Positions 3,431 through 22,125 of a stretch of DNA of 64,000 bases are shown here, one piece after another. The DNA is taken from positions 23,247 to 87,246 of the forward strand of contig VYCQ01000014.1 of NCBI GenBank assembly GCA_009843865.1. The letters are read 5' to 3'. This DNA comes from Acidimicrobiia bacterium. GTDB taxonomy: Bacteria > Actinomycetota > Acidimicrobiia > Acidimicrobiales > Bin134. The position numbers were made by a program, and so were the translations under genes. Positions within the stretch are counted from its first letter, which is position 1. The number at the start of each line of letters is the position of its first letter. The notes beneath the pieces are model-generated. The model was not told the origin of the DNA and made no database searches. It worked only from the letters and a program-made list of their open reading frames with translations.

Positions 3431-4417
3431 ATGTTGAGAGAAAAGCTCAAAACCGGTTGTCGCGGATGGTTCGGCATTAGAGCGCTTGCCATGATGTTGC
3501 TGCTTACTTTGGGGGCAAGCACTGCCCCTGTTGGGGGCCAACCACGCAACAACCAGCTTGAGAGCCTAGAAGCGAAAATCGCCGAGCAAGAGATGCTTAT
3601 CGCCGACAGAGACGTATTGATCCAAGCCCAAGAAGCTCTACTCAACACTTACCGATGCATGTTCAGCATCGACACCGAGCTAGTGCCAAACGGATGCCCC
3701 AATCCCGCACAGACAGATCCCATACAACCAAACCCCGCACAGCCAAATACAACGCAGCCAGATCCTGCGCCAAGCCCAACTGCCACTCCCACCCCGTCAA
3801 CCACTCCCCTAGACCAACCAACTATCCCCGAAAGCACAACCGCCGAACAGTGGGAGCAACTCCGCCAATGCAATGCTAAGGGCAACTATCAACATGTACA
3901 CCCCAACCAAGCGAACTTCGGTGTCTATGAGTTCAGACAAAGCAGCTGGGATGGCATCGCCCGTCAACACCACCCACACCTAGAGGGGGTTAACCCCAGC
4001 GACGCTGCCCCAGCCGACCAAGATCGCATGGCCTACCTTTTGTTCGGTGAGCGGGGATGGGCACCGTGGCCAGCCTGCAACCCAACTTCGCAAGTGATTT
4101 CATCGGGCGGCGAATCGTCTGAAGGTGCAGCCGACCTCTCGCCGATTCCTGCTGGCAGCACCCAAGCTCAGTGGGATCACCTCATCAACTGCGAATCTAG
4201 CGGCAACTACTCGGCCTACAACCCTGCTGGGCCATATCTGGGCGCTTTCCAGTTTCTCCAAAGCACCTGGAATGAGGTTGCCCGACGCAACCATCCACAC
4301 CTAGAGGGGATAGATCCCCGAGATGCTGCTCCCGCCGACCAGCATCGTATGGCCCATGCCCTTTACCAAGAATCGGGATGGCAACCGTGGCCCGCCTGCA
4401 CCGCGGCATTTAGCTAA
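3431..4417 (+). CDS. secreted protein with two Rpf/transglycosylase-like domains
   Basis: Has a signal-peptide-like N-terminus and a P/T/Q-rich linker. Two repeats follow: C(N/E)(A/S)(K/S)GNY...G(V/A)(Y/F)(E/Q)F.QS(S/T)W...PHLEG..P.DA.PADQ..MA..L....GW.PWPAC. Confidence 0.75.
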   Translation: MLREKLKTGCRGWFGIRALAMMLLLTLGASTAPVGGQPRNNQLESLEAKIAEQEMLIADRDVLIQAQEALLNTYRCMFSIDTELVPNGCPNPAQTDPIQPNPAQPNTTQPDPAPSPTATPTPSTTPLDQPTIPESTTAEQWEQLRQCNAKGNYQHVHPNQANFGVYEFRQSSWDGIARQHHPHLEGVNPSDAAPADQDRMAYLLFGERGWAPWPACNPTSQVISSGGESSEGAADLSPIPAGSTQAQWDHLINCESSGNYSAYNPAGPYLGAFQFLQSTWNEVARRNHPHLEGIDPRDAAPADQHRMAHALYQESGWQPWPACTAAFS

Positions 4418-5378: not shown

Positions 5379-6512
5379 TTAAAACTCAATGACTTGACGC
5401 ACAACCTCGCCGTTGCGCACTGCTTCTAACGCGGGGTTGATCTCGTGGATGCTGATGCGCCGTGTGATCATACCCTCTAAGTTGAGCTTGCCGCTTTTCC
5501 ACAACCGCAACAGCCGGTGAAAGTCGGTGCGCACATCAGTGCCACCGTAATAAGAGCCCACCAATGTCTTCTCGTTGTAGAACAACTCGAAGGCGTTGAA
5601 CGACACCATCTCTTCCATGCGACCCACGCCCACGATGCAACAGGTGCCACCCCGTCGGGTCATGTCGTAGGCGGTGCGCATCAGGGCAGGAACACCGATG
5701 CACTCCAACGCATAGTCGAACCCATCACCTCCGGTGATCTGGTTCTTGGTATCTGCCAAATCTTCGGGCAGCACCGCATGAGTGGCACCGAAGGCAATGG
5801 CCTCATCTAGCTTGGCCGGGTTCTTGTCCACCGCCACAATCTCAGCGGCACCAGCGATCCTCGCCCCTTGAATGGCAGCCACGCCCACACCACCTGCCCC
5901 GAACACCACCACTGACGAGCCAGGGCTGACCTTGGCTGTATTCAGGCAAGCTCCGACACCGGTCATCACCCCGCAACCGATGAGAGAAGCCACGTCTAGG
6001 GGTATGTCAGAGTCAATCTTCACCACACCCTGACGTGGCATGAGCGTCCTTTCGGCGAAGGTGCCCGCTCCAGCCATCCCCATCATTTCTTGACCACCCT
6101 GAGCAAACTTGGTGCGGGCCATAGCTCCAAAGGTGATGTTGATGCATAGGTTGGGCTGGTTGCGCCCCGTGCAATAAACGCACTTGCCGCACGGCGGCGA
6201 CCACACCACGATCACATGATCGCCCACAGCTAGATCATCCACATTGGAACCGACCTCTTCAATAATTCCGGCACCTTCGTGGCCAAGCACCAAAGGCGGT
6301 TCCTGGGGGATGGTTCCGTTCATCACCGACACATCAGAGTGACACACTCCGGTGTGGGTGATTTTTATAGCTACATCATCAGGACCTAGGTCTAGCATCT
6401 CGATGTCATCACATAAATCAAGGGTGGTCTCCCCCACCTCTCGCATGATCGCCGCAAGCACAATAAAAGCGTAGGCCGATCTCTCGACTACTTGCGAACC
6501 CGCTTCTGCCAA
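5379..6512 (-). CDS. zinc-dependent alcohol dehydrogenase family (class III-like)
   Basis: Motifs GVCHSD, GHEGAGIIEEVG, CGKCVYC and GAGGVGVAAIQGA. The track ORF extends to 6710, but that N-terminus overlaps the divergent gene. TTG 6512 is the proposed start; ATG 6443 is an alternative. Confidence 0.85.
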   Translation of the reverse strand: MAEAGSQVVERSAYAFIVLAAIMREVGETTLDLCDDIEMLDLGPDDVAIKITHTGVCHSDVSVMNGTIPQEPPLVLGHEGAGIIEEVGSNVDDLAVGDHVIVVWSPPCGKCVYCTGRNQPNLCINITFGAMARTKFAQGGQEMMGMAGAGTFAERTLMPRQGVVKIDSDIPLDVASLIGCGVMTGVGACLNTAKVSPGSSVVVFGAGGVGVAAIQGARIAGAAEIVAVDKNPAKLDEAIAFGATHAVLPEDLADTKNQITGGDGFDYALECIGVPALMRTAYDMTRRGGTCCIVGVGRMEEMVSFNAFELFYNEKTLVGSYYGGTDVRTDFHRLLRLWKSGKLNLEGMITRRISIHEINPALEAVRNGEVVRQVIEF

Positions 6513-6638
6513 GGTTCTTCTGTGGTGACCGAGGTCGTAAATACCATGGTCAGTGCATCTGTATTTCAGCACTTCATATGTCAGTTTTTTAGCACTTACA
6601 ATGACAGTAAAACCACACTTACAATATACTTTAACCCT

Positions 6639-7916
6639 GTGACTAAAACCCTTACTCCATCCGGATACCGACCTCGGATCGTCGACAGGGAAGTAGCTGA
6701 AGCCCTGCAATCCAGCCCTGCTGTCTTCCTAGATGGTCCCCGAGCCAGCGGAAAGACTTGGACCGCTAAGAACTTCGCGCAGAGCGAGGCGCTCTTCGAC
6801 ACAATACCCGGTGTCCGGCTAGCGGCATCAATTGATGCCGCATCCCTGCTTGACGGTCCCGTCCCTCGCTTGTTAGACGAATGGCAGCAAGTGCCCGAGA
6901 TCTGGAACCCCATGCGGCGTGCCTGCGATGAACGAGCTGAAATGGGGCAATTTCTACTTACCGGATCAGCGAATCCACCCGACGACATAACCAGGCATTC
7001 CGGTGCCGGACGGATCACAAGGGTGAGGCTGCGGCCAATGTCGTTGTTTGAATCAGGCGAATCGGATGGGAGCGTGTCGCTCAACAAGCTGATGAACGGT
7101 GAATCCAATCAACCACAAAACCCCGGTATTCAGATTCCTGAAATGATCGAACTTGTATGCCGGGGAGGCTGGCCAAGGATCATCTCAGGCACTCCAGCCT
7201 TCGCGCAGAGACGTTTGCGCGCATACTTAGACGATATCAGCCGTACCGATATCGCCCGGGTAGATGACATAAAGCGCGACCCCGTAGGAATCCGCCGACT
7301 ACTGACTTCGCTGGGGCGCAACACCGGCACCAAGGCATCTTACAAGACACTTGCCGAAGACGCGTCTGGAAATCGAGAAGTACCTTGGCATCCCCGAACT
7401 ATCAAGGAGTACTTGCAGGCACTTGAGCGGCTGTTCGTGGTTGAAGACTTACCAGCGTGGCAACCACATCTGAGATCGCGAATAGCCTTGCGCACGACTC
7501 CAACTCGCCATTTTGTATGCCCATCTCTCGCTGTAGCCGCCCTGCGGACGAACAGCACCCGACTGCGAGCTGATTTAAACTTCTTCGGCTTCCTCTTTGA
7601 ATCGCTCGTTGTGCGCGATCTTCGGGTCTATTCGCAACTCGAGGCTTGCCAGCTCTCTCATTATAGAGATGAATACGGTTTGGAAGTAGACGTGATCTTG
7701 GAAAGAGCCGACGGAGAGTGGGTTGCATTCGAAGTCAAACTTGGCGGCGATGAAGGGGTCATGGAAGGCATCGAATCACTTCGCCAGCTGAGAGATCGGG
7801 TCGACACCAAGCGAATGGGAGACCCCATCAAGTTGGCTGTCATCACCGCAACCGGCATCGGAGTTGAGTTACCCGACGGAATAGCAGTCATCCCTATCAC
7901 GACCCTAAGTCCCTGA
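6639..7916 (+). CDS. AAA ATPase with DUF4143-like C-terminal domain
   Basis: YRPRIVDREV...GPRASGKT (Walker A), LLDEWQ, LTGSA, HSGAGR and PMSLFE. GTG 6639 is proposed as the start, downstream of an AT-rich divergent promoter region; the start is uncertain. Confidence 0.8.
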   Translation: MTKTLTPSGYRPRIVDREVAEALQSSPAVFLDGPRASGKTWTAKNFAQSEALFDTIPGVRLAASIDAASLLDGPVPRLLDEWQQVPEIWNPMRRACDERAEMGQFLLTGSANPPDDITRHSGAGRITRVRLRPMSLFESGESDGSVSLNKLMNGESNQPQNPGIQIPEMIELVCRGGWPRIISGTPAFAQRRLRAYLDDISRTDIARVDDIKRDPVGIRRLLTSLGRNTGTKASYKTLAEDASGNREVPWHPRTIKEYLQALERLFVVEDLPAWQPHLRSRIALRTTPTRHFVCPSLAVAALRTNSTRLRADLNFFGFLFESLVVRDLRVYSQLEACQLSHYRDEYGLEVDVILERADGEWVAFEVKLGGDEGVMEGIESLRQLRDRVDTKRMGDPIKLAVITATGIGVELPDGIAVIPITTLSP

Positions 7917-8107
7917 GCGCTGGCTTAGCCTAAAGCGATATCGGTGCCACGGATTAGAAAGACAAGATGCCGGTTACTGCTGTCAGTCGACCATGCACTA
8001 TGCGGCCAAACGTTCGAGGATCCGCTGATACGCTCGGCTGCATTGCCCTAAGTCCTCTCCGGCTGGCCTGCTCAGCAGGGCGTGGCCGAGCTATGTTTTA
8101 GAATCAT

Positions 8108-8703
8108 TCAGCAGTTCACGTACTTAAAAGGTGAACACTCACCCTTTTTGAAGAGGTGCTGTACGCTGGTATTGCGATAGTGCGCCAACTCATCGGCAAC
8201 CTCGCCATTGAAGCCCCATCGTTTGTGAGGTTTACCGATGTCGTGTTCCCAGTCTCGGTCGCCTGACTGTCGCTGTCGCCAGCTATTAATCCGATACACC
8301 TCGTGGATGATTCCCTTATCAACGGCAAAGGCGTAGTCAGCGTTATTGCGGCGAGGGCCAAGCCTCCACCAGCCACGAGTTGCGTCGTACAGTTCCTCAG
8401 CAGAAATCTCGGGCGACCAGAACTGAGGAATCTTAAACAAGATCACCCGCTCTTTGATCTCAGGCACTCGGGGCGCATCAAAAAGCGATATTGCAACATC
8501 AGTGGTCATTCGGCCCCACCGCCAAACATCATGTCCTTCGACCTTGTTAGTGAGCTCGTCCATGCCCAGCAGCTACATAGCCGCTGCTTCAATCTCGAAG
8601 GCGGTTTCGTCTGTAAGCCCACGTAGAAAACCTTGTCGTCGCGCGGATCAATCAACAAATAGACATACGCCTTGAGCTTCTCGCTCACAGAAGGTGAGAA
8701 CAC
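8108..8703 (-). pseudogene. GIY-YIG nuclease family gene, disrupted
   Basis: The N-terminal motif YVYLLIDPRDDKVFYVG is joined out of frame to TDETAFEIEAAAM*LLGMDELTNKVEGH..., and about 50 expected codons between them are missing. An in-frame TAG lies at 8573-8575. The C-terminal domain (ATRGWWRLG..ADYAFAV..GIIHEVYRI) is intact. Confidence 0.65.
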
Positions 8704-8708
8704 GTTGT

Positions 8709-9326
8709 TTATCGTAATCGCCTCACTGAAAAGCGGCCATGAGCAACAAACCGAACAATGGCTAATGGGGTTGAAACCAGCGCTGGCAAACAACCGGCTC
8801 CTACGGTTTCTCTTTCTTTTGACCGCGCTTTTTTCATGATCCGGTCGGTAGCATCCCAGCCTTGCTTCTCCAGCCATAGAACCTGCTTAAAGGCCGCTTC
8901 TCGATCCTCTTGAACAGCCTCAACCATTGTCTCTACGTTGGCGCTCAGTCCGGTCATTGTGAGATTAGCAGACCCCGCCAAGACTGCGATTGGCTGCCCT
9001 TTAGGTACTTCTACAGCGAACATCTTGGAATGGGCGATAGCAGGCCCTTTCTGGTTCTTGGCAGTTCGGTACCAATTAAGAATCCGAACGTCGGGACGCG
9101 AGATAAACTTCACCACCTCGGCGGCATCGCGTGCCTCAAAGTTATCCAACCCGGTACGCAGATCACCGATCACAACCGTCACGGGCCTTTTCGCAGCCTT
9201 GCGAGCCAGCCACGCCAACCCTGCCATCGACGTGTACCCGGTTACAACATGAAGATGACCAATCGGATAATCAACCAAGAACCGCTCTATCCGCTTCATC
9301 ACCTGAGTGTCAAAGCCAAATCCCAT
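8709..9326 (-). CDS. HKD/PLD-superfamily nuclease-like protein (paralogue A)
   Basis: AHSKMFAVE...GSANLT is an HxK(x)4E...GSxN motif. The protein aligns along its length with the 18342-19220 product. Start is ATG 9326 (alt TTG 9341). Confidence 0.7.
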   Translation of the reverse strand: MGFGFDTQVMKRIERFLVDYPIGHLHVVTGYTSMAGLAWLARKAAKRPVTVVIGDLRTGLDNFEARDAAEVVKFISRPDVRILNWYRTAKNQKGPAIAHSKMFAVEVPKGQPIAVLAGSANLTMTGLSANVETMVEAVQEDREAAFKQVLWLEKQGWDATDRIMKKARSKERETVGAGCLPALVSTPLAIVRFVAHGRFSVRRLR

Positions 9327-9344
9327 AAGCCCAAGTAGCAAGCA

Positions 9345-9544
9345 TCATAGAAGCAGGAAGCATCAACCCCACTCTGTACCCTCTTTACCCTCAACCCCGT
9401 TCTGACGCTGTGACAGCAACCTGTTTCCATGTCTCGCAGATCGCTTACGAACTTCCTAAGGCATTCGACAAACTGCGCGTACTACTCTGAGGTCAGACGT
9501 TTGTAATCGCGCTCAAACGAGAGCATCGTATGGAAGGTTGGCAT
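9345..9544 (-). pseudogene. RelE/ParE-superfamily-like toxin remnant
   Basis: MPTFHTMLSFERDYKRLTSE*YAQFVECLRKFVSDLRD...GLRVKRVQSGV. There is an in-frame TAG at 9482-9484, and the 3' part is overrun by the start of the PLD gene. Confidence 0.45.
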
Positions 9545-9555
9545 TAACGACCGGC

Positions 9556-9792
9556 TTAGGAATCTGAATGCTCAGCCAGCTTGCTCAATCCTGTAATGAG
9601 TTCTTCTGTGCTAGTATAAAAGGTACCATTAGAACGATCAGCAACCACCCCTTTTCCGATATCGGCATCGAAATCGGAAAAGGTCAATACCTCATCTACA
9701 GCATTCTCGTCCAGCCGAACGAACGAACTCTGCTTCTTCAAGTTTGATAGTACCAGGGGAAGGCTCGTGTAGATGTTCTTCGTCCATGACAC
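9556..9792 (-). CDS. hypothetical protein (78 aa), possible antitoxin of the adjacent toxin remnant
   Basis: GTG-start ORF that ends 11 nt before the toxin-like remnant. No motif recognised. Confidence 0.35.
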   Translation of the reverse strand: MSWTKNIYTSLPLVLSNLKKQSSFVRLDENAVDEVLTFSDFDADIGKGVVADRSNGTFYTSTEELITGLSKLAEHSDS

Positions 9793-9816
9793 AAGAATAC
9801 GGCATCTGAGTCCAGA

Positions 9817-10026
9817 TTAGACCCTCAAATCAGAATTGAGATGCATTCCAAACCGCCGCTCAATCTCTTCGACAGATACGCTCTCGAAGCACAACGCGAG
9901 AGCTTCGGCAAGGTTCCCTCATGCCTCAAAAACCGTTTCTCCCTAACTCGCAACATCAACCTCCGGGCAGAATGCGACGTAGCCATCACCCTCGGATTCG
10001 ACAATCGCGATTAAACGCCTATTCAT
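9817..10026 (-). pseudogene. HicB-family antitoxin with two in-frame stop codons
   Basis: A perfect SD (AGGAGGT) precedes MNRRLIAIVESEGDGYVAFCPEVDVAS*GETVFEA*GNLAEALALCFE.... TAG lies at 9943-9945 and TGA at 9919-9921. The sequence matches the HicB N-terminal pattern (DGGY.A.CP.L.GC.SQGET.EEA..N..EA). Confidence 0.6.
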
Positions 10027-10142
10027 CTCCTACCTCCTATTGCAACGTTACTGGCTATGATGAGATCAAGTGGGATGAATAGGATGCTTGTGTGAGCTGC
10101 CGGTAAACCTTACAGTCGTGAAAAACAATTGGAGGAGCTGAA

Positions 10143-10322
10143 GTGGAAGCAGAAACGTTAACAGACGATACAACGATAGAAAGGTTGGAAGAACACGAGG
10201 CAGGAGTAGCTGACCTCATGGCTGCTTATGATTTAGTCGGGCAAAGCTACTTCCCCGCTGCCCGCGCCGCCGCGCCCCTCTACATGCGGATTGTGGCATC
10301 GAACACCACTCAAGTGATCTAG
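10143..10322 (+). CDS. hypothetical small protein (59 aa)
   Basis: GTG start 5 nt after GGAGGAG. Translation is VEAETLTDDTTIERLEEHEAGVADLMAAYDLVGQSYFPAARAAAPLYMRIVASNTTQVI. It falls below the length cut-off of the ORF track. Confidence 0.35.
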   Translation: MEAETLTDDTTIERLEEHEAGVADLMAAYDLVGQSYFPAARAAAPLYMRIVASNTTQVI

Positions 10323-10644
10323 GTGTGAACACTTTAAACAACTAAGTGAGCACACAGGCGACATCGTGATCGTCACAAATGAACCAGGGGGAACCGCCCC
10401 TAACGGAACGATTCCCCCTTTGTAGACCTAAGAGCAGTATACACACGACATGTTGGCTGGAACAGATTTTGAACGTTCTATCTCAGCACGTTTGCTGGAT
10501 TTTTGAGAAGACCTCCAAAAATGCAGAAAGTAGGACAAGCCATCACAAGAAAGGACTAGCGTAAACGATTACTCAAGACACACAGAACTAATCTGCGTAT
10601 CTTGAGTCAATCCAAAGAGACGCTACCTGCACAAAAATTAGCAT

Positions 10645-12201
10645 CTAATAACGAGAAGGATTTGACACACCTATCTCTGGCTCGTTGCCAACACGTCCTG
10701 CTCCAAACCTTTCTGCGGCTTTTCGTATCACAGATGCAATTCGCCTAACGCTGGGCACACTAATATCGATCAAACAACCTGAAGACTGACTTATCGGATT
10801 TTCAAGATTTAGTAGCTGAGATGGCGACCGGCCATGAGGAATCGGTGCTGAGGAAAGAGGAAGTAGCCCATTAGCACGTAGGAGTGCTGTTCTCTTTACG
10901 ATTGCTCGATGGATGTTATGCAATAACCAACCATCCACTCGTGCTAAAGCATCTGAATCGTTCAGAAGAGGATAGCAAGACATAACACCTGTGAAGTGTT
11001 GATATGGAATTTCACCTCGTTGGAAGCTCTTAACTTTCTTCTCAGACAAATCTCCATACAGATATCTTCGTAGTTGTACCAGTAAAGCGACATAGTCGCT
11101 GTCGAGAGTTTCAGTGATTCTATCTGGGTGTTGGTTGTTTTGAAGTGGTTCTCTCAGAAGGTTGTCATAGATCAGTTTTAGACACTTCTGCTTAATTTTA
11201 GCTTCGGCATCACTTGCAAGTTCGCAATGCTCAAGACCCAAGTCGTAACCGAGAAAACGAACACTCCTTTTAGTCCTGATCTCCCCTTCAGATGTCCAAG
11301 ATCGTGGCACTAACAGGCTTATCCCCGCTGATTTCTGCCTATTGAAATCAACTCCCATTCGAGCAGCTTCCTCAGTGAGTATCTCCACTGCTTCACAAAT
11401 ACTGCCGTAAGCATCGCCCCAGATAAGGGTATCGTCTGCATAGCGAACGAACCCTACGCCCACTCTCTCAAGCCTCTGGTCAAGATGCCTAGCAGCCAGG
11501 TTAGCTAGGATAAGACTTATGCTAGTGCCTTGAGGAATACCCTTAGTTGCATCTCTTCCACCATTCGAAACATAAGACTCCTCGGGTATAGAAATCGAAC
11601 GCATAAAAGTAACCATAATGTGCTTTTCTAAATCCGTGAGAAACAGACTTCGTTGTTCAATCATCTCGTAGAGATGTGCATGTGATATATTTGAAAAGAA
11701 CGATTTGAAATCGTACTCGGCAATAAAGACCCTTGTCTTGCCAGTCCACTCTGTGCGCACGAAGTGTATTGCATCGTGAGCTGATAAGTCTTTTCTGTAG
11801 GCGTAGGCTCTCCCACTGAATCGTGAAATGTTTTTAGCAAGAATTTGATCGAACGCAAATCGTGACAAAGCACTATCAGCAATCTGGAACACTGACAGAC
11901 TTCTAACACCTCCGTTAGGTTTGACTATCTCGACCTTTACTGGTGAGCAAGGTCGATAACGGTTCTCCTTTAAAGCCCGCCACATCGCGTGCCCAATCAC
12001 ATCTGCTCGTCGACGTACATGATAAGGATTGAAGCCGGGATCAAGCTTCCACCATGAAGGCTGTGCGGTTTCAAGACGCTGTAAGGGGATCTTAGACCGT
12101 TTCCGACGCCGCTCCCATTCCAGATAGCCTCTATGCATATTGCGCTCGTGACGCTTAATCAGCCTGCTGGCCTCTCTATTGATGTATTGTGACAGCTGCA
12201 A
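10645..12201 (-). CDS. reverse transcriptase (non-retron, group-II-like/defence-associated type), 518 aa
   Basis: RT motifs [67 protein letters not shown] and FLGYDL. TTG start has SD GTGAGG 7 nt upstream; the first ATG is at 12138. The gene is markedly AT-richer than its flanks. Confidence 0.85.
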
Positions 12202-12220
12202 CTCTGAACCTCACTCAACG

Positions 12221-12255
12221 AAAATGTGGTGGGGGCATGCATACCCCCACCACAT
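12221..12255 (-). terminator. terminator/attenuator-like hairpin ~20 nt upstream of the RT start
   Basis: A perfect 12-bp stem, ATGTGGTGGGGG / CCCCCACCACAT, with an 8-nt loop, followed on the minus strand by TTT. Confidence 0.45.
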
Positions 12256-12279
12256 AGCGGCAACGCAATCCGGACAGGG

Positions 12280-12300
12280 AAAAACTGAGCCGAAGCTCAA
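12280..12300 (-). terminator. terminator-like hairpin with UUCG tetraloop and U5 tail
   Basis: Minus strand reads CCUUGAGC-UUCG-GCUCAG-UUUUU, giving a 5-bp stem plus a U.G pair. Confidence 0.4.
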
Positions 12301-12427
12301 GGTGGGTTATCCCACCCCATCAACTGCAAAGCAGCCGTTTCGGTAGCATTGCCTAGCTAACTCTTGCCAGCTAGCTTGATTTTACTTGACGTGGTCTGCG
12401 TTGGGGGGATTGTGAGAAGGGATAGGC

Positions 12428-13975
12428 GTGGCGACAGATCTAGGTGAACTTCAGGGGAAGCTTTGGGAGACGGCGGATCAGCTGCGGGCGAACTCTGGAT
12501 TGAAGGCTTCTGAGTATGCGTCGCCGGTGTTGGGGTTGATCTTTTTGCGGTACGCGGATGAGCGGTTTGCTCAGGTTGAGGAGGTTATCGGGAGGAGGGG
12601 TTCTGAACGGCGGACTATTGGGCCAGAGGACTACCAAGCGGCTGGTGCTCTGTATTTGCTGGAGGAGTCGCGGTTTGGGGCGTTGCTGAACCTTCCTGAA
12701 GGTGCTGATGTCGGCAAAGCGGTCAACCAAGCCATGGTGGGCATCGAGAGCAGCAACCCTGATCTTCAAGGGGTGTTGCCGAAGGACTATTCCCGCATTC
12801 CCGACGACATCTTGGGCGAGCTCTTGCGGCTGTTACGAGCTTTACCGGAAGTGATCGAGGGTGATGGGTTTGGACTAATCTACGAGTACTTCTTGGGGCA
12901 GTTCGCCTTTTCGGAGGGTTCGAAGGGCGGGGAGTTCTTCACCCCCACCTCAATCGTGCGGCTCATCGTGGAGATCCTGGAGCCATTCCACGGCAAGATC
13001 TACGACCCTGCCTGCGGGTCGGGCGGAATGTTCGTCCAGTCGGCCCATTTTGTGGAGCGACACCGCCGCGACCCCAGTGCGGAATTGTCGATCTACGGTC
13101 AGGAGAAGACCGGCGACACCGTCAAGCTCGCCAAGATGAACCTCGCTGTCCACGGGCTCGCCGGCGACATCAAGGAAGGCAACACCTACTACGAGGACCT
13201 CCACGACGCGGTCGGCGAGTTCGACTTCGTGATGGCAAATCCCCCGTTCAACGTCAACAAGATCGACAAGGCCAAACTCGAAGACGACCCTCGGTTCCCG
13301 TTTGGATTACCCAAGCCAGACAACGGCAACTACCTGTGGATCCAGACCTTCTACTCCGCGCTCAACAGGAGCGGGCGAGCTGGGTTTGTTATGGCCAACT
13401 CCGCGTCAGACGCCCGAGGCAGCGAACTGGAGATACGCCGCAAGCTGATCGAGGACCGCAGTGTCGACGTGATTATCGCCGTGGGCACCAACATGTTCTA
13501 CACCGTCACCCTGCCCGTGACGCTGTGGTTCCTCGACCGCGGCAAGAAGTACACCGACCAAGCCGAGCAGGTGCTCTTCATTGACGCCCGCGAGATCTAC
13601 AACCCGATTGACCGGGCCCACCGCGACTGGACACCCCAGCAAATTGAGTTTCTCGCCAACATCGTCCGGCTCTGGAGAGGCCAAGAGCCAAAGTTCGATG
13701 CGGGGAGCGAGGACATGCTTGACGAGAGGTTTCCCGAAGGCCAATATGCCGACGTTGCTGGCCTCTGCGCTGCTGTGACACTCGAGCAGATCGAGGAGCA
13801 GGACTGGAGCCTGAATCCTGGGCGATACGTCGGTATGGCGACGGGTAAGATGCAAGACATCGATTTCGAGACCAGCATTGGTGAGCTTGCCGAGGAATGG
13901 GAACTGCTATCGGCAGAGGCGCTGCGATTGGGTGAGTCAGTTTCCCAGGTTCTCGATTCTGTGTGGCATCAATGA
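12428..13975 (+). CDS. hsdM: Type I restriction-modification system, DNA methyltransferase subunit M
   Basis: GEFFTP, DPACGSGGMF (SAM motif I) and the NPPF catalytic motif. Followed by hsdS with an ATGA overlap. Confidence 0.92.
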   Translation: MATDLGELQGKLWETADQLRANSGLKASEYASPVLGLIFLRYADERFAQVEEVIGRRGSERRTIGPEDYQAAGALYLLEESRFGALLNLPEGADVGKAVNQAMVGIESSNPDLQGVLPKDYSRIPDDILGELLRLLRALPEVIEGDGFGLIYEYFLGQFAFSEGSKGGEFFTPTSIVRLIVEILEPFHGKIYDPACGSGGMFVQSAHFVERHRRDPSAELSIYGQEKTGDTVKLAKMNLAVHGLAGDIKEGNTYYEDLHDAVGEFDFVMANPPFNVNKIDKAKLEDDPRFPFGLPKPDNGNYLWIQTFYSALNRSGRAGFVMANSASDARGSELEIRRKLIEDRSVDVIIAVGTNMFYTVTLPVTLWFLDRGKKYTDQAEQVLFIDAREIYNPIDRAHRDWTPQQIEFLANIVRLWRGQEPKFDAGSEDMLDERFPEGQYADVAGLCAAVTLEQIEEQDWSLNPGRYVGMATGKMQDIDFETSIGELAEEWELLSAEALRLGESVSQVLDSVWHQ

Positions 13976-15189
13976 CAGCACTGAGCGAACTCTGCACCTC
14001 GGTCGACTACGGCTATACGGCCAGCGCTTCTGATGACCCTTCCGCTGGTCCAAAATTTCTTCGGATCACGGACATTGTCCCTGACTCGATCAATTGGGGG
14101 GCTGTTCCTCACTGTGAAATAGAGGATCGCAAGCTCGAGAAGTTTCTTCTCAACGAGGGGGACATCGTTGTTGCCCGTACTGGAGCGACGGTTGGATATG
14201 CGAAACAGATCTGGGCTCGACCCGAGAGTGCTACTTTCGCCAGCTATTTGGTTCGTTTTCGACCTGACGCTGCCAAGGTTAATCCGTACTATCTCGGACA
14301 GATAATTCAGTCTGCTGCATTCAAGAAATGGGTCAAATCCGTAGCGGGTGGGGCTGCGCAACCAAACGCAAATGCGAGACTTCTGGGATCCTATGAAGTC
14401 GTTCTCCCCGACCTAGACATCCAGCGATCCGTTGTCCGTGCCGTGATGATTTTGGAAAGTCTCATGGAGAACAATCGGCGGCGGATTGAGATTTTGGAGG
14501 AGATGACTCGGTTGTTGTACCGGGAGTGGTTTGTGTACTTTCGGTTTCCGGGGCATGAGGATGTCGAGTTGGTCGACTCTGACCTCGGCCCGGTCCCTGA
14601 CGGGTGGAATGTGTCTCCCTTGGTCGAGGCCTGTTCGCTCGTCATGGGCCAGTCGCCAAAGTCGGAGTACTACAACGATTTCGGAGAAGGGCTTCCATTT
14701 CATCAGGGCGTGACCGACTTTGGGCCGCGGTTCCCTACTCACACGAAGTGGACGACGGTGGACAAGCGAGTGGCCGAGCAGGGGGACATCCTGTTCAGCG
14801 TTCGGGCCCCTGTTGGCCGCATCAATGTGGCATCCGATCGTCTTGTAGTGGGAAGAGGCCTCAGTGCGATCCGAGCCTTGGATGGAAATCAGAACTTCTT
14901 GCTGACCCAACTAAAGGACAAGTTTGCAGTTGAGGACTCAATCGGTGGTGGGACAATCTTCAACGCTGTAACCAAGAAGGATATGGAGTCGATCCAGTTG
15001 CTGAAGCCGATCAGACCGATCGTTGAAGCCTTTGAAGATGTGGCTTCTCCGATGGCCGACCTGGTCGCAACTCTTTCTCGACAGAATCTCATACTCCGGG
15101 AGGCTCGTGATCTGCTGTTGCCGCGTCTGGTGTCTGACGAGCTCGATGTAACTGAGCTTGACCTCAACCTGGAGGCTGTGGGGGCGTGA
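13972..15189 (+). CDS. hsdS: Type I R-M specificity subunit S
   Basis: Two target-recognition halves (GDIVVARTGATVGY... and GDILFSVRAPVGR...) are separated by a conserved helical spacer (LESLMENNRRRIEILEEMTRLLYREWFV). It overlaps both hsdM and hsdR. Confidence 0.9.
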   Translation: MTALSELCTSVDYGYTASASDDPSAGPKFLRITDIVPDSINWGAVPHCEIEDRKLEKFLLNEGDIVVARTGATVGYAKQIWARPESATFASYLVRFRPDAAKVNPYYLGQIIQSAAFKKWVKSVAGGAAQPNANARLLGSYEVVLPDLDIQRSVVRAVMILESLMENNRRRIEILEEMTRLLYREWFVYFRFPGHEDVELVDSDLGPVPDGWNVSPLVEACSLVMGQSPKSEYYNDFGEGLPFHQGVTDFGPRFPTHTKWTTVDKRVAEQGDILFSVRAPVGRINVASDRLVVGRGLSAIRALDGNQNFLLTQLKDKFAVEDSIGGGTIFNAVTKKDMESIQLLKPIRPIVEAFEDVASPMADLVATLSRQNLILREARDLLLPRLVSDELDVTELDLNLEAVGA

Positions 15190-18100
15190 ATCCAGGTCGG
15201 TTGAGTGAGGATGCCCTGGTTGAGCAGCCAGCATTGGCGTTGTTGTCGGAATTGGGTTGGGAGGTGCTAGACGGATTAACCGAAGACTTAGGGCCAGCGG
15301 GGACATTGGGACGTGATTCTCAGTCGGAGCCGGTGCTGCGGCATCGGCTCGACGATGCGCTGCGATCTTTAAATCCTGGGGTGCCCAAGTCGGCGTTGGA
15401 TGAGGCTGCTGAGCGGCTGACACAGGATCGCTCAGCGATGGATCGAGTTCGAGCGAACCGTGAGGTCTACGGCCTGCTGCGGGAGGGGGTGAAAGTAGAG
15501 GTCGCTGTCGACAACAGCGAGCGCCAGATGGTGACGGTGCGGTTCGTGGACTGGGATCGCACTTCGGCTAATAGCTGGTTAGCAGTTTCACAATTTTGGA
15601 TCTCCGGCGACATGTACAAGCGCCGGGCCGATGTGGTGTTGTTCGTCAACGGCATTCCATTGGTACTAGTGGAGTTGAAGGTGTCGCACAAGAATGTTCG
15701 TGACGCGTACGACGGTAATTTGCGGGATTACCGGGACACTGTTCCGCATCTGTTCTGGTTCAACGCGTTCGTGATGCTCTCAAACGGGGCAGACACACTA
15801 GTGGGCTCTACGTTTGCGGATTGGAGGCATTTCGCTGAGTGGAAGAAAATCGACACCGAAAGCGAGCAGGGCATCGTGTCGCTGGAGACCGCTCTGCGAG
15901 GGACGTGCGAGCCGTATCGCCTTTTGGATCTGGTGGAGAACTTCACCGCGTTCATGGAGCGGCCGGGCGGGTTGGTGAAAGCGCTAGCCAAAAACCACCA
16001 ATTTCTCGGAGTACACAACTCGCTGGAGGCATTGCGAGAGGTAGGCCAACGAGAAGGCCGATTGGGAGTATTTTGGCACACGCAGGGGTCAGGCAAGTCA
16101 TTGTCGATGCTTTGGTTTACCCAAAAGGTACTACGCAAAGAGCCGGGCAACTGGACGTTTGTGATGGTCACCGACCGCGCCGAACTCGACGATCAGCTTT
16201 ACGAGGATTTCGCTGATTGCGGGGTAATCACCGCGGGCCAAAAAGTTCACGCCGAGTCATCAGCGCATCTGCGCGAGCTGCTGAGCCAAGATCACCGGTA
16301 TGTGTTCACGCTGATTCACAAGTTCATCCCACCCGAGCGAGGCCAACAAATGCCGGTGCTATCAGAGCGGGACAACATCGTGGTGATCACCGATGAGGCG
16401 CATCGCTCTCAATACGACACCCTGGCAGCCAACATGCGCCAAGCGCTGCCCACTGCATCGTTCATCGGGTTCACCGGCACGCCGCTCATCGCTGGCGAGG
16501 AAGAGGAGACCCGGCGGGTGTTTGGCGACTACGTGTCGATCTACAACTTCAGCGACTCCATCGCCGACGGTGCCACCGTTGCGCTCTACTATGAGAACCG
16601 CATCCCCGAACTCCAGTTGATGAACGACGACTTCGACGAAGAGCTCGAAGACCTCCTCGAAGCCGCCGCGCTCGACGATGCTCAAGACAAGGCGGTGGCC
16701 CGCCAGTTCTCTCGCCAGTACCAACTAATCACCCGTCCGCAACGCCTACAGGAGATCGCCGTCGATCTGGTCTGCCACTTCGTCAACCGGGGATTTAGGG
16801 GCAAAGCGATATACGTGGCCATCGACAAGGCCACAGCCGTGAGGATGTACGACCTAGTACAAACCGAATGGGCCCGCTACCAAACAGAGCTAGAGGCCGA
16901 GCTGGCCGATGCGCCCGAGATGGCGCACCCTCACCTGAAGTCGCTCATCGACTTCATGGCCACCACCGACATGGCCGTGGTGGTGTCGCAGGCCCAGAAC
17001 GAGGTGGCTGACATGGCCGAAGCTGGGCTAGACATCGCCAAACACCGCAAGCGCATGGTGGAAAACAACCTCGATGCCAAGTTCAAAGACCCCGATGATC
17101 CGTTCCGATTAGTGTTCGTGTGCGCTATGTGGCTCACCGGTTTTGACTCGCCATCTACCTCAACGGTGTATCTCGACAAGCCGATGCGCAACCACACCCT
17201 GATGCAGACCATCGCCCGAGCCAACCGTGTGTTTCCCGACAAAGACAACGGCCTCATTGTCGACTACGTGGGCGTGTTTCGAAACCTGGAGAGAGCCCTC
17301 GCCATCTATGGCGCGGGCGATATCGGGCTGAAAGGCGGCTCGCCCATCCGTCCCAAAACCGACCTGATCGCAAAACTGCAAGCTGCGCTTGAAGAAATCG
17401 CCAATTTCTGTGACAACCACGATGTCGATCTTACCAAACTGGAGGCCGCTGCGGGCTTTGAGTTCATCGCTCTGCAACAGGCTGCTGTCGAAGCGCTGCT
17501 CGTAGACAATCAAACCAGCCGCACCTACGTAGCGCTGGCCCGGCGAGCCCGAAAAACCTTTAAAGCCCTGCTGCCCGACCCCGAGGCCATGGCCGCGGCC
17601 CACCAGATAGCAATAATCCGAACGATCGCAGCCAAGATCGAATCATCCACCGAGGCCCCCGACATCTCCGGGGTAATGGACTCGGTGTCAGAACTGCTTA
17701 ACCGTTCAGTTGCTACCAACGAATACATCATCGGTACCGCCGGTGCCGACCCGCTCATCGACTTGAACCAGCTCAACTTCGACCAACTCATCGAGCGCTT
17801 CCAAGGGCGTAAGCGCACCGCCGCCAAAGCAATCCAAAGAGATATCGAAGCGCGCCTCAATGATGCTGTGCGCAAGAACCCCACCCGAGGCGACCTCGCC
17901 GAGCGGTTCCGACAACTCATCGACGAATACAATGCCGGAACCCACAACCTCGAAGAACTCCTCCGGCGGCTCAAGGCTATCAACGACGAAATCACCGAAG
18001 AAGAACAACGCGCCGTGCGAGAAGGCATGTCCGAAGAAGAACTCGCCGTCTACGACCTGCTTACCAAACCCGAGCCCGACCTCACCCGCGCCGAAACCAT

Positions 18101-18353
18101 CCAAGTTAAAAACGCCGCCAAGAAGCTGCTAGAGCGCGTTACCGATGAACTTGTACTCGACTGGAAACGCAAACAGCAAACCCGTTCCGCCGTCAAGGTC
18201 GCCGTGCGCGATGTGCTCGACAGCGAACTGCCCGACGTGTACGAGCGCGAGCTTTTCAACCGCAAAGTTAACGCCATCTACGAACACATCTACACCAGCT
18301 ACCACAACGATCGCACCAACATCTACGACACATCCCAACCACTAATCCGCTGA
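15186..18353 (+). CDS. hsdR: Type I R-M restriction/helicase subunit R
   Basis: 1055 aa with an N-terminal nuclease region (VLFVNGIPLVLVELK), Walker A HTQGSGKS, and the DEAH box VITDEAHRSQ. GTGA overlap with hsdS. Confidence 0.92.
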   Translation: MNPGRLSEDALVEQPALALLSELGWEVLDGLTEDLGPAGTLGRDSQSEPVLRHRLDDALRSLNPGVPKSALDEAAERLTQDRSAMDRVRANREVYGLLREGVKVEVAVDNSERQMVTVRFVDWDRTSANSWLAVSQFWISGDMYKRRADVVLFVNGIPLVLVELKVSHKNVRDAYDGNLRDYRDTVPHLFWFNAFVMLSNGADTLVGSTFADWRHFAEWKKIDTESEQGIVSLETALRGTCEPYRLLDLVENFTAFMERPGGLVKALAKNHQFLGVHNSLEALREVGQREGRLGVFWHTQGSGKSLSMLWFTQKVLRKEPGNWTFVMVTDRAELDDQLYEDFADCGVITAGQKVHAESSAHLRELLSQDHRYVFTLIHKFIPPERGQQMPVLSERDNIVVITDEAHRSQYDTLAANMRQALPTASFIGFTGTPLIAGEEEETRRVFGDYVSIYNFSDSIADGATVALYYENRIPELQLMNDDFDEELEDLLEAAALDDAQDKAVARQFSRQYQLITRPQRLQEIAVDLVCHFVNRGFRGKAIYVAIDKATAVRMYDLVQTEWARYQTELEAELADAPEMAHPHLKSLIDFMATTDMAVVVSQAQNEVADMAEAGLDIAKHRKRMVENNLDAKFKDPDDPFRLVFVCAMWLTGFDSPSTSTVYLDKPMRNHTLMQTIARANRVFPDKDNGLIVDYVGVFRNLERALAIYGAGDIGLKGGSPIRPKTDLIAKLQAALEEIANFCDNHDVDLTKLEAAAGFEFIALQQAAVEALLVDNQTSRTYVALARRARKTFKALLPDPEAMAAAHQIAIIRTIAAKIESSTEAPDISGVMDSVSELLNRSVATNEYIIGTAGADPLIDLNQLNFDQLIERFQGRKRTAAKAIQRDIEARLNDAVRKNPTRGDLAERFRQLIDEYNAGTHNLEELLRRLKAINDEITEEEQRAVREGMSEEELAVYDLLTKPEPDLTRAETIQVKNAAKKLLERVTDELVLDWKRKQQTRSAVKVAVRDVLDSELPDVYERELFNRKVNAIYEHIYTSYHNDRTNIYDTSQPLIR

Positions 18354-19220
18354 GTGGGTTAACACCAACGCGGAAAAGGCTCCAGCAGCATTTGACCTGC
18401 TCTCAACATGACCAATGCCTTCACATTGTTCAAGGATGTGCGGAAGCATTGCCAGCAGCACAAGCCCTGCTACCACCATTGCTACTGCCTTAGCCAGCTC
18501 AACTAGCCTTGAACAAGCAGATCTACTCAGACGGCGACGATGACGATTGCTGCTCTTGTAGAGCGCAGGTGCCCGCCTTGGCTGCTGATACCGCCGCCGC
18601 TTTGATGCTGCCTTGAGGGAATGACGTGTCTGGCTCTGATAAGCGGGCTTTGGAATCTGATAGGTGTGCGTAGGTGTTGAAGGAGACATAGTTATCTCGC
18701 TGCTTGGCTGTTTAAGGTCGCGGTGGCCTAGGCGTTCGAGCAGTTCATCTTCAATGGGCCAGCTCTTGTCCATAACATGGCGCATCTCAGCTCGAAGCCG
18801 CTCGTGTTCGTCAGGGTCGGCGAGGGTCATCATTTCAACGTTATGCAAAAGACCTTGCTTGGTCAGGTTGGCTGAGCCCACCAAAACCGCTCCTGAGTTT
18901 CCGTTGAGCAGGTCGGAATCGACAATCCATGCCTTAGCGTGCGCCACTCGATAACCGCCACGCTTGCGATACCAATTACGCACCGACACATCTTGCCGCT
19001 GAATAAACCTAATTGCCGCCAAACGGTCAGCCTCCGTGTATTTGGAGAACCCGGTGCGGTAGTCGCCAATCAGCAACTTGACCGGACGTTCAGCGGTTCG
19101 TTCTTCCAACCATGCCAACCCAAACGCTGAAGAAAACCCGACAGTAACCCAAAGCTGCCCCGAGGGATTTTCACGAAGAAATTGTGCAATCCGATCACCC
19201 GGCGTACTCACTACCGACAT
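18342..19220 (-). CDS. HKD/PLD-superfamily nuclease-like protein (paralogue B) with basic linker and C-terminal hydrophobic helix
   Basis: Canonical HAKAWIVD...GSANLT motif. The C-terminus is R/K-rich (KRRRYQQPRR...HRRRLSR), followed by AVAMVVAGLVLLAMLPHIL. Its 3' end overlaps the 3' end of hsdR by 12 bp, convergently. Confidence 0.7.
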   Translation of the reverse strand: MSVVSTPGDRIAQFLRENPSGQLWVTVGFSSAFGLAWLEERTAERPVKLLIGDYRTGFSKYTEADRLAAIRFIQRQDVSVRNWYRKRGGYRVAHAKAWIVDSDLLNGNSGAVLVGSANLTKQGLLHNVEMMTLADPDEHERLRAEMRHVMDKSWPIEDELLERLGHRDLKQPSSEITMSPSTPTHTYQIPKPAYQSQTRHSLKAASKRRRYQQPRRAPALYKSSNRHRRRLSRSACSRLVELAKAVAMVVAGLVLLAMLPHILEQCEGIGHVESRSNAAGAFSALVLTHSAD

Positions 19221-19292
19221 GCTATGTCGAACCTCAAGGAAAAGTTCGCAACTCTTACAAATATGAAAACATAGCCGCTTAGGACACTGTTT

Positions 19293-20303
19293 CTAGCGAT
19301 GAAAAGGAAGGTCTGGCATTTGAACCATGTCGTTTTCCCAAGTAAAGCGGCATCGTTCAGCAACCCACTTAATGTGCTCGTAAGCGTCCGACAGATTGAA
19401 CATCCAGAGAACTTCACCTTCGTCGTTGTCGGCTAACATCATCAACCATCCACCACGGCTCAGATTATTCGCCCACCGCACGAACGCAGTAACGGTGCGT
19501 CCGTCGAATGGGTAAAAGTCTACTGATCTGTCGCTTCGCCAGAAGGCTCCCCACGGAAACGGCAAGAGATCATCAAATTTGCTGACCAACTCATCCCAGT
19601 CCCATTCCCACCACGCTGTTATTCCTTCAGGCAGCCACAGTATCCGCTTCTCAAGCATGGAGCTGTTATCCCACCGCTCCCAACCGTTGGAATCTGTAAC
19701 GCCCACCTCTGGCCCGCCAGGCCCAGTGGTCTCACAGGACACCCACAGATAGTCGGTGGTCTTGCCGCTGTTGCCTCCACCCCATATTGTGGCAGTCTCG
19801 GCAAATACTCTGCCCGACGGAGATGTGCCGCTACGCCACTCCCTAACCTCGGGCCAAGTCCATGTTCCCTCGGGCTCAGGCTCACTCGTAGGCGCAAGAA
19901 TGGGTGCCACCCCAGCGCAGCCACCAACGACGACTGCAAGGTCTACTTGAAACAGGCAGCGATAGGCGTTCAGCAACTCCTCTTGGAAGAGGATCAGATT
20001 GTCCCGCTCTGTGAGCATCTCCCACATCGGGGTGCCGCTGAAAGACCTCGTCGTGAGCGGGCCGAGAGCGGGCTCGCCATCAAGACACCCACCTAAAACA
20101 ATATGAACGTCAATGTCAAAATTGCATCGGTAAGCGTTCAGTAAATTTTCTTGGGCAACAATTAGGGCATTCCTGATGTCGATGTCGTCCCTGCTCGGCA
20201 GCTCTGTCGCTGAGGCGGAAAAAGAACTCCCCAACAACGCCAGAGATACAAACAAAGCCAGGAAACAGCGCTTAATGTTCAATATCCCATACTCTAATGC
20301 CAA
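19293..20303 (-). CDS. secreted hypothetical protein with duplicated Cys-containing module and Trp-rich C-terminal domain
   Basis: Has a signal-peptide-like N-terminus and two copies of ..LI..QE.LLNAYRC.F..D...V.GGC. The C-terminal half is W-rich. Confidence 0.6.
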   Translation of the reverse strand: MALEYGILNIKRCFLALFVSLALLGSSFSASATELPSRDDIDIRNALIVAQENLLNAYRCNFDIDVHIVLGGCLDGEPALGPLTTRSFSGTPMWEMLTERDNLILFQEELLNAYRCLFQVDLAVVVGGCAGVAPILAPTSEPEPEGTWTWPEVREWRSGTSPSGRVFAETATIWGGGNSGKTTDYLWVSCETTGPGGPEVGVTDSNGWERWDNSSMLEKRILWLPEGITAWWEWDWDELVSKFDDLLPFPWGAFWRSDRSVDFYPFDGRTVTAFVRWANNLSRGGWLMMLADNDEGEVLWMFNLSDAYEHIKWVAERCRFTWENDMVQMPDLPFHR

Positions 20304-22115: not shown

Positions 22116-22125
22116 AAGGACTGTT

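Follow-up and report, generated by a model that had tools for sequence, protein, structure and literature searches.

The locus described here raises the question of what a reverse transcriptase (RT) gene and the hairpin-rich leader directly upstream of it do in an actinobacterial genome, and whether the neighbouring defence genes have a part in it. The locus lies in a stretch of 64,000 nucleotides (nt) from Acidimicrobiia bacterium (contig VYCQ01000014.1 of assembly GCA_009843865.1, positions 23,247 to 87,246), which is called the window here and whose own positions are used throughout. In this study, we found that the RT gene and its leader very probably form a DRT9-type system in which an RT is paired with a non-coding RNA (ncRNA). 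An RT with a template RNA of this kind is already known, namely DRT9, characterised in 2025, and the departure is a serine that replaces the tyrosine pair clade-wide.

It has been reported that DRT9 is a two-component system, composed of an RT and an ncRNA directly upstream of it, and that nothing else is required (PMC12483538). The Escherichia coli DRT9 RNA is 188 nt long and has six stem-loops and an irregular loop (PMC12489045). A universally conserved U-tract, U123-126 in Salmonella and U124-127 in E. coli, templates kilobase-length poly-dA (PMC12483538, PMC12489045), and the synthesis in E. coli is primed by Y496/Y498 of a C-terminal loop (PMC12489045). The DRT9 complex is a hexamer held by RNA, and the build-up of poly-dA after infection leads to abortive infection (PMC12483538, PMC12489045).

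The RT gene and the elements needed to read it are as follows.

10645..12201, minus strand: DRT9-clade (UG28) RT gene, from the open reading frame (ORF), the Drt9 hidden Markov model (HMM), the PDB match and the AlphaFold2 (AF2) fold
11431..11442, minus strand: YADD catalytic motif, residues 254-257, read from the sequence and translation
12209..12214, minus strand: Shine-Dalgarno-like GTGAGG, 7 nt 5' of the TTG start, read from the sequence; relatives are purine-rich at this place

The ORF list and translation gave an RT of 518 amino acids (aa) with a TTG start and a TAG stop. The Drt9 HMM of PADLOC matched residues 2-507 of the 518 over profile positions 4-482 of 488 (E=3.1e-161, 535 bits), and the runner-up PADLOC models were a generic RT (99 bits) and RT_UG17 (76 bits), with Drt2 at 57 bits. 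The top PDB sequence matches were the DRT9 chains 9ioa, 9iob, 9nlv, 9nlx, 9vku and 9vma (E=1.7e-87, residues 2-443). An AF2 model of the RT, built on 31 homologues, had a pLDDT of 88.9 and a pTM of 0.84; in it, residues 2-35 form a long N-terminal helix, and the tail, residues 508-518, is disordered (pLDDT <50). When this model was compared with the PDB using Foldseek, the top six matches were all DRT9 cryo-EM chains over ~510 columns (TMq 0.81-0.86, TMt 0.87-0.90), followed by group II intron RTs (TM 0.5-0.67) and the DRT2 structure 9C0I (0.43-0.51). The model thus shows the architecture of DRT9, with the long N-terminal helix, the fingers, the palm with its YxDD motif, the thumb and a C-terminal extension, and no other enzymatic domain. 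These results demonstrated that the RT is a member of the DRT9 (UG28) clade by sequence and predicted fold.

In the alignment of 31 sequences, Y254, D256 and D257 were invariant and A255 nearly invariant, and all residues that are invariant in the family were present in the window RT. Pfam recognised RVT_1 as the sole domain (residues 93-320), with ~92 aa on its N-terminal side and ~198 aa on its C-terminal side that carry no further Pfam domain. Because the AF2 model overlays the DRT9 chains, these parts are the DRT9 N-terminal extension and the thumb with the C-terminal extension. An earlier note on this DNA, made from the sequence alone, had described a 518-codon minus-strand RT with a YADD motif and with extensions of ~100 and ~190 aa, which agrees with our translation and the Pfam limits. 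It had also taken the gene for an orphan RT of unrecognised type; that view is refuted by the end-to-end Drt9 match, and the profile-HMM classification among RT clades that it had proposed as a check returned Drt9. The contrast in GC content that it had pointed out is real, but it is smaller than was stated (0.43-0.46 in the RT gene and 0.52-0.60 in the hsd genes next to it).

The start of the gene was also examined. Residues 2-21 of the RT align with the N-terminal helix of E. coli DRT9, and homologous loci have ATG or TTG at the position matching TTG 12201; therefore, TTG 12201 is the correct start. The database copy of the window protein (P0001, 497 aa) begins at Met22, 21 codons late (window 12139-12201). 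The RefSeq entry for the E. coli DRT9 RT (NZ_CP039298.1; L053, 6352-6450) is 33 codons too long and reaches into the ncRNA. A 12-residue insertion was seen at residues 203-218 (nt ~11548-11595), before the GIPQGTS motif. It is found in 31 of 31 aligned homologues, all of the actinobacterial-type branch, with an invariant Tyr210, and is absent from E. coli DRT9. In E. coli, Tyr25 stacks on U121 (PMC12489045). This residue has no conserved counterpart in our set, as the window has Asn21 and no such residue runs through the actinobacterial homologues, and it was not used as a defining feature.

On the other side of the leader, hsdM starts with GTG 12428 on the opposite strand, which leaves 226 bp between hsdM and the RT gene. 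We investigated this leader by comparing 44 genomic loci, 8 loci from metagenomes that belong to the clade of the window, and the locus of E. coli. The last (NZ_CP039298.1, our L053) was located through its accession in Supplementary Table 1 of PMC12483538; a tblastn search of the plasmid and phage collections with E. coli DRT9 found no enterobacterial copy. In a Nocardia locus (L022), the upstream region (positions 3700-4000) holds a G-rich low-complexity stretch with a run of N, which looks like an assembly artefact, and the locus was left out of the counts. Two covariance models were built. R1 represents the window's clade, and R2 was made only from 13 canonical loci, that is, loci whose RTs end in a YxY tail. 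The elements of the leader are listed below in the order in which they would be transcribed, with stem-loops (SL) numbered from the 5' end and helices numbered as in the covariation analysis.

12379..12384, minus strand: putative -10 promoter box TAAAAT, from the comparison of loci
12202..12375, minus strand: predicted DRT9 ncRNA of ~160-175 nt, from covariance models R1 and R2 and covariation
12353..12374, minus strand: SL1 with a CAAGAG loop, then the conserved UAGGC (helix 1, 4/4 pairs compensatory)
12346..12353, minus strand: 5' strand of the SL2 long-range stem, GGCAAUGC, which closes a multi-branch loop (helices 3-4, 5/7 pairs compensatory)
12321..12337, minus strand: SL3 hairpin, CGGCUGCUUUGCAGUUG (helix 5, 4/5 pairs compensatory; also in the minimum free energy (MFE) fold)
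12301..12316, minus strand: SL4 hairpin, in the GGGUGGGAUAACCCACC region (helix 6, 4/6 pairs compensatory)
12285..12300, minus strand: SL5 hairpin with a UUCG loop, of varying length among relatives (helix 7, 4/5 pairs compensatory)
12280..12284, minus strand: U5 tract, the predicted poly-dA template (a U-run in 49/49 usable loci)
12269..12279, minus strand: conserved CCCUGUCCGGA element adjoining the template (C104-C106, C110 and G113 of the alignment invariant)
12259..12266, minus strand: 3' strand of the SL2 long-range stem, GCGUUGCC (alignment, fold and covariation)
12224..12255, minus strand: SL6, a terminal GC-rich hairpin of 12-14 bp, then UUU (helix 9, 8/14 pairs compensatory, 95% of cells paired)

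The 5' end of the ncRNA was set from the -10 box, and its 3' limit follows the E. coli convention of counting up to the RT start codon. The fold of the leader was better than that of all 200 dinucleotide shuffles (z = -4.4, and -5.1 for the 179-nt core). RNAalifold on 12 clade loci predicted 45 pairs, 29 of them with compensatory changes, and six helices were supported. In the same loci, 89.9% of the cells were paired, compared with 40-48% when the 3' partners were slid by 1-3 columns; compensatory pairs fell from 29 to 8-14 in these controls, and none of 500 shuffles reached the observed value on any of five pairing measures. The R2 alignment gave a similar picture, with 25 of 41 pairs compensatory in the 13 canonical loci. 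When 22 mixed canonical loci were aligned with MAFFT and folded with RNAalifold, almost no consensus structure was obtained, which resulted from misalignment; the homogeneous set of 13 worked.

Both models identified the leader. R1 scored 167 bits at 12218-12382 of the minus strand, as high as any relative does, and this was its only match on the RT strand of the window; a weak plus-strand match is due to the palindromic SL6. R2, run unfiltered on both strands of all 64 kb, had its best match at 12220-12375 of the minus strand (E=0.0028) and also matched L001, L048 and L051 at the correct place. In the other direction, R1 weakly found the correct position upstream of the RT in eight distant loci with canonical tyrosine tails.

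The topology of the canonical group is the same: UAGGC comes after SL1, and there are a long-range stem, internal hairpins, the U-run and, last, a terminal hairpin. The SL1 loop is CAAGAG in 11 of the 12 clade loci and CAGGAG in one, and canonical loci have the same SL1 stem with loops of the CAAGAG or CAGUG type. The SL2 long-range stem, which has an equivalent in canonical loci, encloses SL3, SL4 and SL5, and the junction that leads from SL5 to the 3' strand of this stem holds U5 and the invariant CCC..CCGGA block. The U-tract that is universally conserved in DRT9, in the loop before the last stem-loop, is here U5 at 12284-12280. All 49 usable loci, that of E. coli among them, have a U-run of 3-8 nt at a distance of 41-110 nt upstream of the RT start, and in every locus examined for it, again including E. 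coli and the canonical loci, a strong GC-rich terminal hairpin follows on the 3' side. A UCC/GGA pairing proposed within the CCCUGUCCGGA element (helix 8) never varies, which neither supports nor refutes it. The UUU tail after SL6 is confined to the window and its two closest relatives and is missing in 9 of the 12 clade loci, which have ACCC and similar sequences. One metagenomic member of the serine-tail clade (L051, contig ERZ6864144, ~3405-3425) has an interrupted U-tract, UUGUU, in CUUGUUCCCCUGUCCGGA; the system may be degenerate there, the sequence may contain an error, or the template may be other than a pure homopolymer.

A TAnnnT hexamer was present 5-10 nt upstream of the first stem in 12 of 12 clade loci, and it was also seen by eye in the canonical actinobacterial loci checked. 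A scan of the leader with the full sigma-70 consensus found no promoter. The hexamer is a putative actinobacterial-style -10 element that is visible only through the comparison of loci, and its place directly before SL1 across loci argues for a dedicated ncRNA promoter. It was also observed that only ~43 nt (12385-12427) separate this box from the hsdM start, and that hsdM has its own Shine-Dalgarno sequence, GAGAAGGGA. It follows that hsdM must be transcribed from a promoter within the ncRNA gene or on its far side, and this implies that transcription runs antisense across the ncRNA.

These comparisons show that the leader is a conserved, covarying structured RNA with six helices, and they suggest that it is a DRT9 ncRNA. 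All four hairpins of the earlier note (12353-12374, 12301-12316, 12285-12300 with U5 at 12284-12280, and 12224-12255) are present, and two helices had been overlooked, namely the hairpin at 12321-12337 and the long-range stem of 12346-12353 with 12259-12266. The note's proposal of a structured RNA immediately upstream of and co-oriented with the RT, in the layout of DRT2 and DRT9, was borne out by the covariation, which it had named as a check, and by the DRT9 assignment.

We next examined the C-terminal tail, which departs from the published systems.

10648..10680, minus strand: C-terminal tail, residues 508-518, with Ser513 (nt 10663-10665) and the terminal Tyr518; predicted protein-priming loop

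The tyrosine pair of E. coli DRT9 (Y496/Y498) was not found here, and the window tail has one terminal Tyr and no YxY. Tail classes were counted among the 120 closest homologues. The serine-tail class comprised 35 proteins, among them the window protein and every homologue with at least 49% identity to it. All 35 had P-x-x-[G/D]-x-S, in most cases with N-P after it, and the serine was invariant, whereas a Tyr occurred anywhere in the tail of only 6; P0020 (...GVSNPSRATQ) and P0022 (...IGLS) are members without one. Among the other homologues, 80 of 83 had a tail Tyr, 79 of them within the last six residues, and the three exceptions look truncated. Canonical tails typically end in PYGY or YDY, resembling the NYDYE of E. 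coli. In a neighbour-joining tree of the protein core, with tails removed and rooted on E. coli, the 31 serine-tail proteins of at least 450 aa and one with a frameshifted tail formed a single clade. The serine-tail clade is monophyletic and apparently associated with Acidimicrobiia. The conserved glycine at the end of the last helix (PS[VF] plus 15 residues) was taken as the zero point of the offsets.

+12 and +14: E. coli priming tyrosines
+10 and +12: tyrosines of canonical actinobacterial DRT9
+13: Ser513 of the window RT
+18: Tyr518, the terminal residue of the window RT

The hydroxyl residue that is conserved across the clade is the serine, and the candidates for the priming residue of the window RT are the clade-invariant Ser513 and the terminal Tyr518. 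The window protein and its two nearest relatives end in SNPSRY, and for this reason Tyr518 could still prime in the window protein. We propose only tentatively that the primer is Ser513 rather than Tyr518 or another residue. It is likewise possible, though doubtful, that the clade has lost its priming tyrosines and would prime poly-dA from the invariant serine, as a serine-primed homopolymer-synthesising RT. Between 0 and 39 residues follow the serine, so that the predicted priming loop is no longer C-terminal in many members. In the related DRT10 family, the primer is a conserved C-terminal serine for Eco3DRT10 and a tyrosine for Eco1DRT10. Given this precedent, serine priming is plausible here and would not be a first.

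Since the RT and the RNA both pointed to DRT9, we compared the locus with the known systems. The RTs of E. coli and Salmonella (SenDRT9; 9NLV, 9NLX, 9IOA, 9IOB, 9VKU, 9VMA) share the full-length fold with the window RT, that is, the N-terminal helix, the YADD palm, the thumb and the C-terminal extension. Identity between these RTs and that of the window is ~40-45% over residues 2-443 by BLASTP/phmmer and 32-34% by structural alignment. In both, the ncRNA is encoded on the same strand directly upstream, with 188 nt in E. coli and about 160-175 nt in the window, there is no protein partner, and the C-terminal tail is flexible. The layout of the E. coli RNA, taken from a near-MFE constrained fold and not from the solved structure, is comparable: SL1 comes first, three hairpins are enclosed by a long-range stem, and after the U-run there is a terminal GC hairpin, with a U-run just before the RT start. 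The fold with the equivalent long-range stem (ACGGU/ACCGU) has -65.8 kcal/mol and the MFE fold -66.1, so that it is 0.3 kcal/mol dearer. Counting 188 nt up to the RT start places UUUU at 124-127, in exact agreement with the published U124-U127, and in the window and E. coli alike the U-run occupies a loop, 10-12 nt ahead of the long-range stem's 3' strand. From this topology we infer that the six helices would match those of the E. coli RNA one to one.

The two systems differ in several respects. The sequence of the E. coli RNA has no detectable similarity to that of the window RNA, and the window comes from a high-GC actinobacterial host lineage, unlike the enterobacterial systems. The template is U5 flanked by G and CCC in the window and U4 flanked by C and A in E. 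coli, and the E. coli tail (...NPQSLNYDYE) carries Y496/Y498 at +12 and +14, whereas the window has an invariant Ser at +13. The canonical actinobacterial DRT9 loci (L004-L040, from Nocardioides, Microbacterium, Mycobacterium and Acidimicrobiia metagenome-assembled genomes (MAGs)) are closer, with RTs 40-48% identical to that of the window. They have the same -10 box, SL1 with UAGGC, long-range stem, U-run and terminal hairpin, they are cross-detected by R1 and R2, and their Acidimicrobiia members also have UUUCCC..CCGGA. They differ in their PYGY/YDY tails and in internal hairpins that are partly nested, in contrast to the three in a row of the window's clade. It was also noticed that E. coli DRT9 (L053, 6711-8461) adjoins an integrase gene, an ssrA (tmRNA) integration site and a MobQ relaxase, and so is carried in E. 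coli by an integrative mobilisable element; near the copy in the window, no integrase was noticed.

The RT lies in a defence island at 6492-23702 that is bounded by tRNA-Leu(CAA) at 23616-23702, with FabD/FabH-like genes of fatty-acid synthesis from 23902 onwards. The other genes of the island are as follows.

6492-7916: PDC-S01-type AAA_14/DUF4143 ATPase
8108-8877, minus strand: PD-T4-3/GIY-YIG gene, split over two frames
8709-9341, minus strand: PLD fragment, with an NgoFVII-type N-terminal PLD domain only
12428-18353, divergent from the RT: Type I restriction-modification (R-M) genes hsdMSR
18342-19220: PLD-family (HKD) nuclease
20869-21375: PDC-S09 nucleotidyltransferase
22126-23079: PDC-M14B-like ORF

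On the 3' side of the RT, the ORF 8108-8563 of the minus strand matched only the C-terminal part of PD-T4-3 (positions 101-253 of 256), and the overlapping ORF 8506-8877, in another frame of this strand, had a weak GIY-YIG match, so 8108-8877 looks like a single gene with a frameshift. Between 9350 and 10645, no ORF exceeded 80 aa. The claim that the immediate neighbours on this side are pseudogenes holds in part, namely for the frameshifted gene, the PLD fragment and this stretch. Two short ORFs at 9817-10026 of the minus strand, MNRRLIAIVESEGDGYVAFCPEVDVAS... and ...CFESVSVEEIERRFGMHLNSDLRV, look like one HicB-type antitoxin-like gene broken by a stop; this reading rests on inspection, and the stitched ORFs had no Pfam match for it. 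At 22001-23500 the GC content falls to 0.37-0.45.

The nearest homologues of the locus were found in Acidimicrobiia MAGs. Nine related loci had their flanks annotated, and the genes next to the RT are different in each.

L001: CoA-transferases and type II R-M
L045 and L049: amidohydrolases
L046: UvrD helicase, HEPN and methylase
L047: PIN, UvrD and DEAD
L048: SNF2 and PIN
L050: HNH
L051: methylase-Mrr and TrwC
L052: SRA, GmrSD and HEPN

Related loci often lie in defence islands, and they have no fixed partner. The varied flanks indicate that the R-M and PLD genes are neighbours within the island and not partners, and fit a self-contained system of RT and ncRNA. One suggestion of the earlier note is thereby upheld; its other suggestion, a new pairing with the R-M and HKD nuclease genes, is not.

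Several other explanations were weighed against a DRT9-type system. That the RT is of the mobile group II intron kind or the retron kind is extremely improbable. The RT shares weak similarity in the RT domain with both, at 124.9 bits to TIGR04416 (group II intron RT) and 46.8 bits to retron St85, but these scores lie far under the curated cut-offs of 300 and 235 bits. No NCBIfam model exceeded its own cut-off, the others being Drt3a (60 of 200 bits) and Drt2 NF041746 (51 of 390), and retron HMMs as a whole reached 17-47 bits against cut-offs of 235-600. An Rfam 15 scan of 9500-13500 in E-value mode returned chance-level small nucleolar RNA and small RNA matches only, with no group II intron, retron msr or other relevant family (retron a1/a2 inverted repeats were not separately searched), and a maturase or endonuclease domain was not recognised by Pfam. 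In structure, too, the RT fits group II RTs far less well than DRT9 (TM 0.5-0.67 and 0.81-0.90). A place within the mobile group II intron RTs, which the earlier note had held against its own proposal, was thus not observed. DRT2 (UG2), with its RT and upstream structured ncRNA and its template near SL2, was rejected at 51 bits for NF041746 and 57 bits for PADLOC Drt2; it is monomeric and not protein-primed, and copies a ~120-nt template by rolling circle to assemble a gene (neo), and the window RT reaches a TM of only 0.43-0.51 to 9C0I. A closer possibility keeps the architecture of RT and ncRNA and lets the template extend into CCC..CCGGA, so that the product would be a short tandem repeat, as in DRT10 or telomerase, and not pure poly-dA. 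The UUUUU-CCCUGUCCGGA block is conserved as sequence and is not a proven helix, the clade member L051 has the run UUGUU, and DRT10, a related Class 2 family, makes repeats from 2-nt A-B-A' homologies with a DRT9-like ncRNA and can be serine-primed. However, the U-run alone is common to the clade, the canonical actinobacterial loci and E. coli (49 loci), CCC..CCGGA also occurs in the YxY-tail Acidimicrobiia loci L004-L012, and the RT scores 535 bits with Drt9 and 76 with UG17; we therefore regard a tandem-repeat product as unlikely. DRT10 (UG17) itself, which pairs a Class 2 UG RT with an upstream ncRNA and copies a short template iteratively from a protein primer, was also rejected. It requires a SLATT effector gene, and no SLATT domain was found in the flanking ORFs, with no ORF longer than 80 aa downstream to 9350; moreover, A-B-A' repeats are encoded in its template loop, which shows little conservation.

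The remaining explanations concern the leader, the neighbours and the state of the locus. The leader could be a cis-regulatory attenuator in which two hairpin-plus-U elements terminate transcription and no trans-acting RNA is made, and a consensus scan did mark 12300-12285 with U5 and 12255-12224 with UUU as terminator-like, against a shuffle mean of 0.3 sites. However, most clade loci have no U tail behind the last hairpin, U5 is the U-tract that the whole family shares and that is copied in DRT9, six compensatory helices including a long-range stem exceed the needs of two terminators, and a -10 box of its own stands directly before SL1. The attenuator is unsupported, since the UUCG hairpin with U5 is SL5 with the template and the last hairpin is a conserved structural element; we consider it highly improbable, and the terminator-punctuated leader of the earlier note is not retained. 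Scarcely more probable is a composite system in which the RT acts with the divergent Type I R-M operon, the PLD (HKD) nuclease or both. These genes are adjacent in the window, and R-M or methylase genes lie within 5 kb of the RT in L001, L046 and L051, but none of the gene families is found at a constant place, with flanks that range from CoA-transferases, UvrD, PIN, HEPN and GmrSD to amidohydrolases and others, the closest relatives (L001 and L045, 83-84% identity) have no Type I R-M, and characterised DRT9 requires only the RT and the ncRNA. It is improbable, too, that what remains is an inactive relic, left in a defence island that is decaying. The broken PD-T4-3/GIY-YIG gene, the PLD fragment, the lack of an intact ORF at 9350-10645 and the low GC content of the RT gene, well under that of its surroundings, would fit such a relic; on the other side stand the intact 518-codon ORF with every invariant family residue, the high score of the ncRNA with R1, and the intact promoter box, U5 tract and Shine-Dalgarno sequence.

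Some observations nevertheless weigh against reading the locus as a DRT9-type system. The published priming pair Y496/Y498 is absent, and the clade has P-x-x-[G/D]-x-S(NP) in its place. R1, run with filters off on the E. coli DRT9 locus, did not match the ncRNA, and Rfam 15 has no family that matches the leader RNA; homology to the studied E. coli RNA is read from topology, position, the U-tract and weak model matches through intermediate loci. The product and the phenotype are extrapolated from proteobacterial systems whose RTs are ~33-45% identical to that of the window. Finally, several neighbouring defence genes have decayed, and selection on the island may be relaxed.

As a DRT9-type system, the locus would act in the following manner. 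An ncRNA of ~160-175 nt would be transcribed from the conserved -10 promoter, on the same strand as the RT gene and directly upstream of it. By analogy with E. coli and Salmonella DRT9, this RNA would scaffold RT oligomers, and upon phage infection the RT would repeatedly copy U5 (12284-12280) into a long product, which is probably poly-dA. The poly-dA would stay covalently bound to a hydroxyl residue of the flexible C-terminal tail, and its accumulation would arrest the infected cell, resulting in abortive infection.

DRT9 has been studied until now only in enterobacterial and other proteobacterial systems. Our results show that conservation of the pair of RT and ncRNA, together with its predicted dedicated promoter and U-tract template, extends deep into the high-GC Actinomycetota. 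From the alignments with covariation, a secondary-structure model is obtained for two actinobacterial ncRNA groups for which Rfam has no family. For annotation, hairpin-plus-U elements upstream of UG28 RTs should not be labelled terminators, and gene callers misplace the starts of DRT9 RTs both ways, 21 codons short in the window and 33 long in E. coli. The serine tail parallels the alternation of Ser and Tyr recently reported in the related DRT10 family, and the replacement of tyrosine by serine is a natural experiment on the choice of the priming residue in protein-primed RTs.

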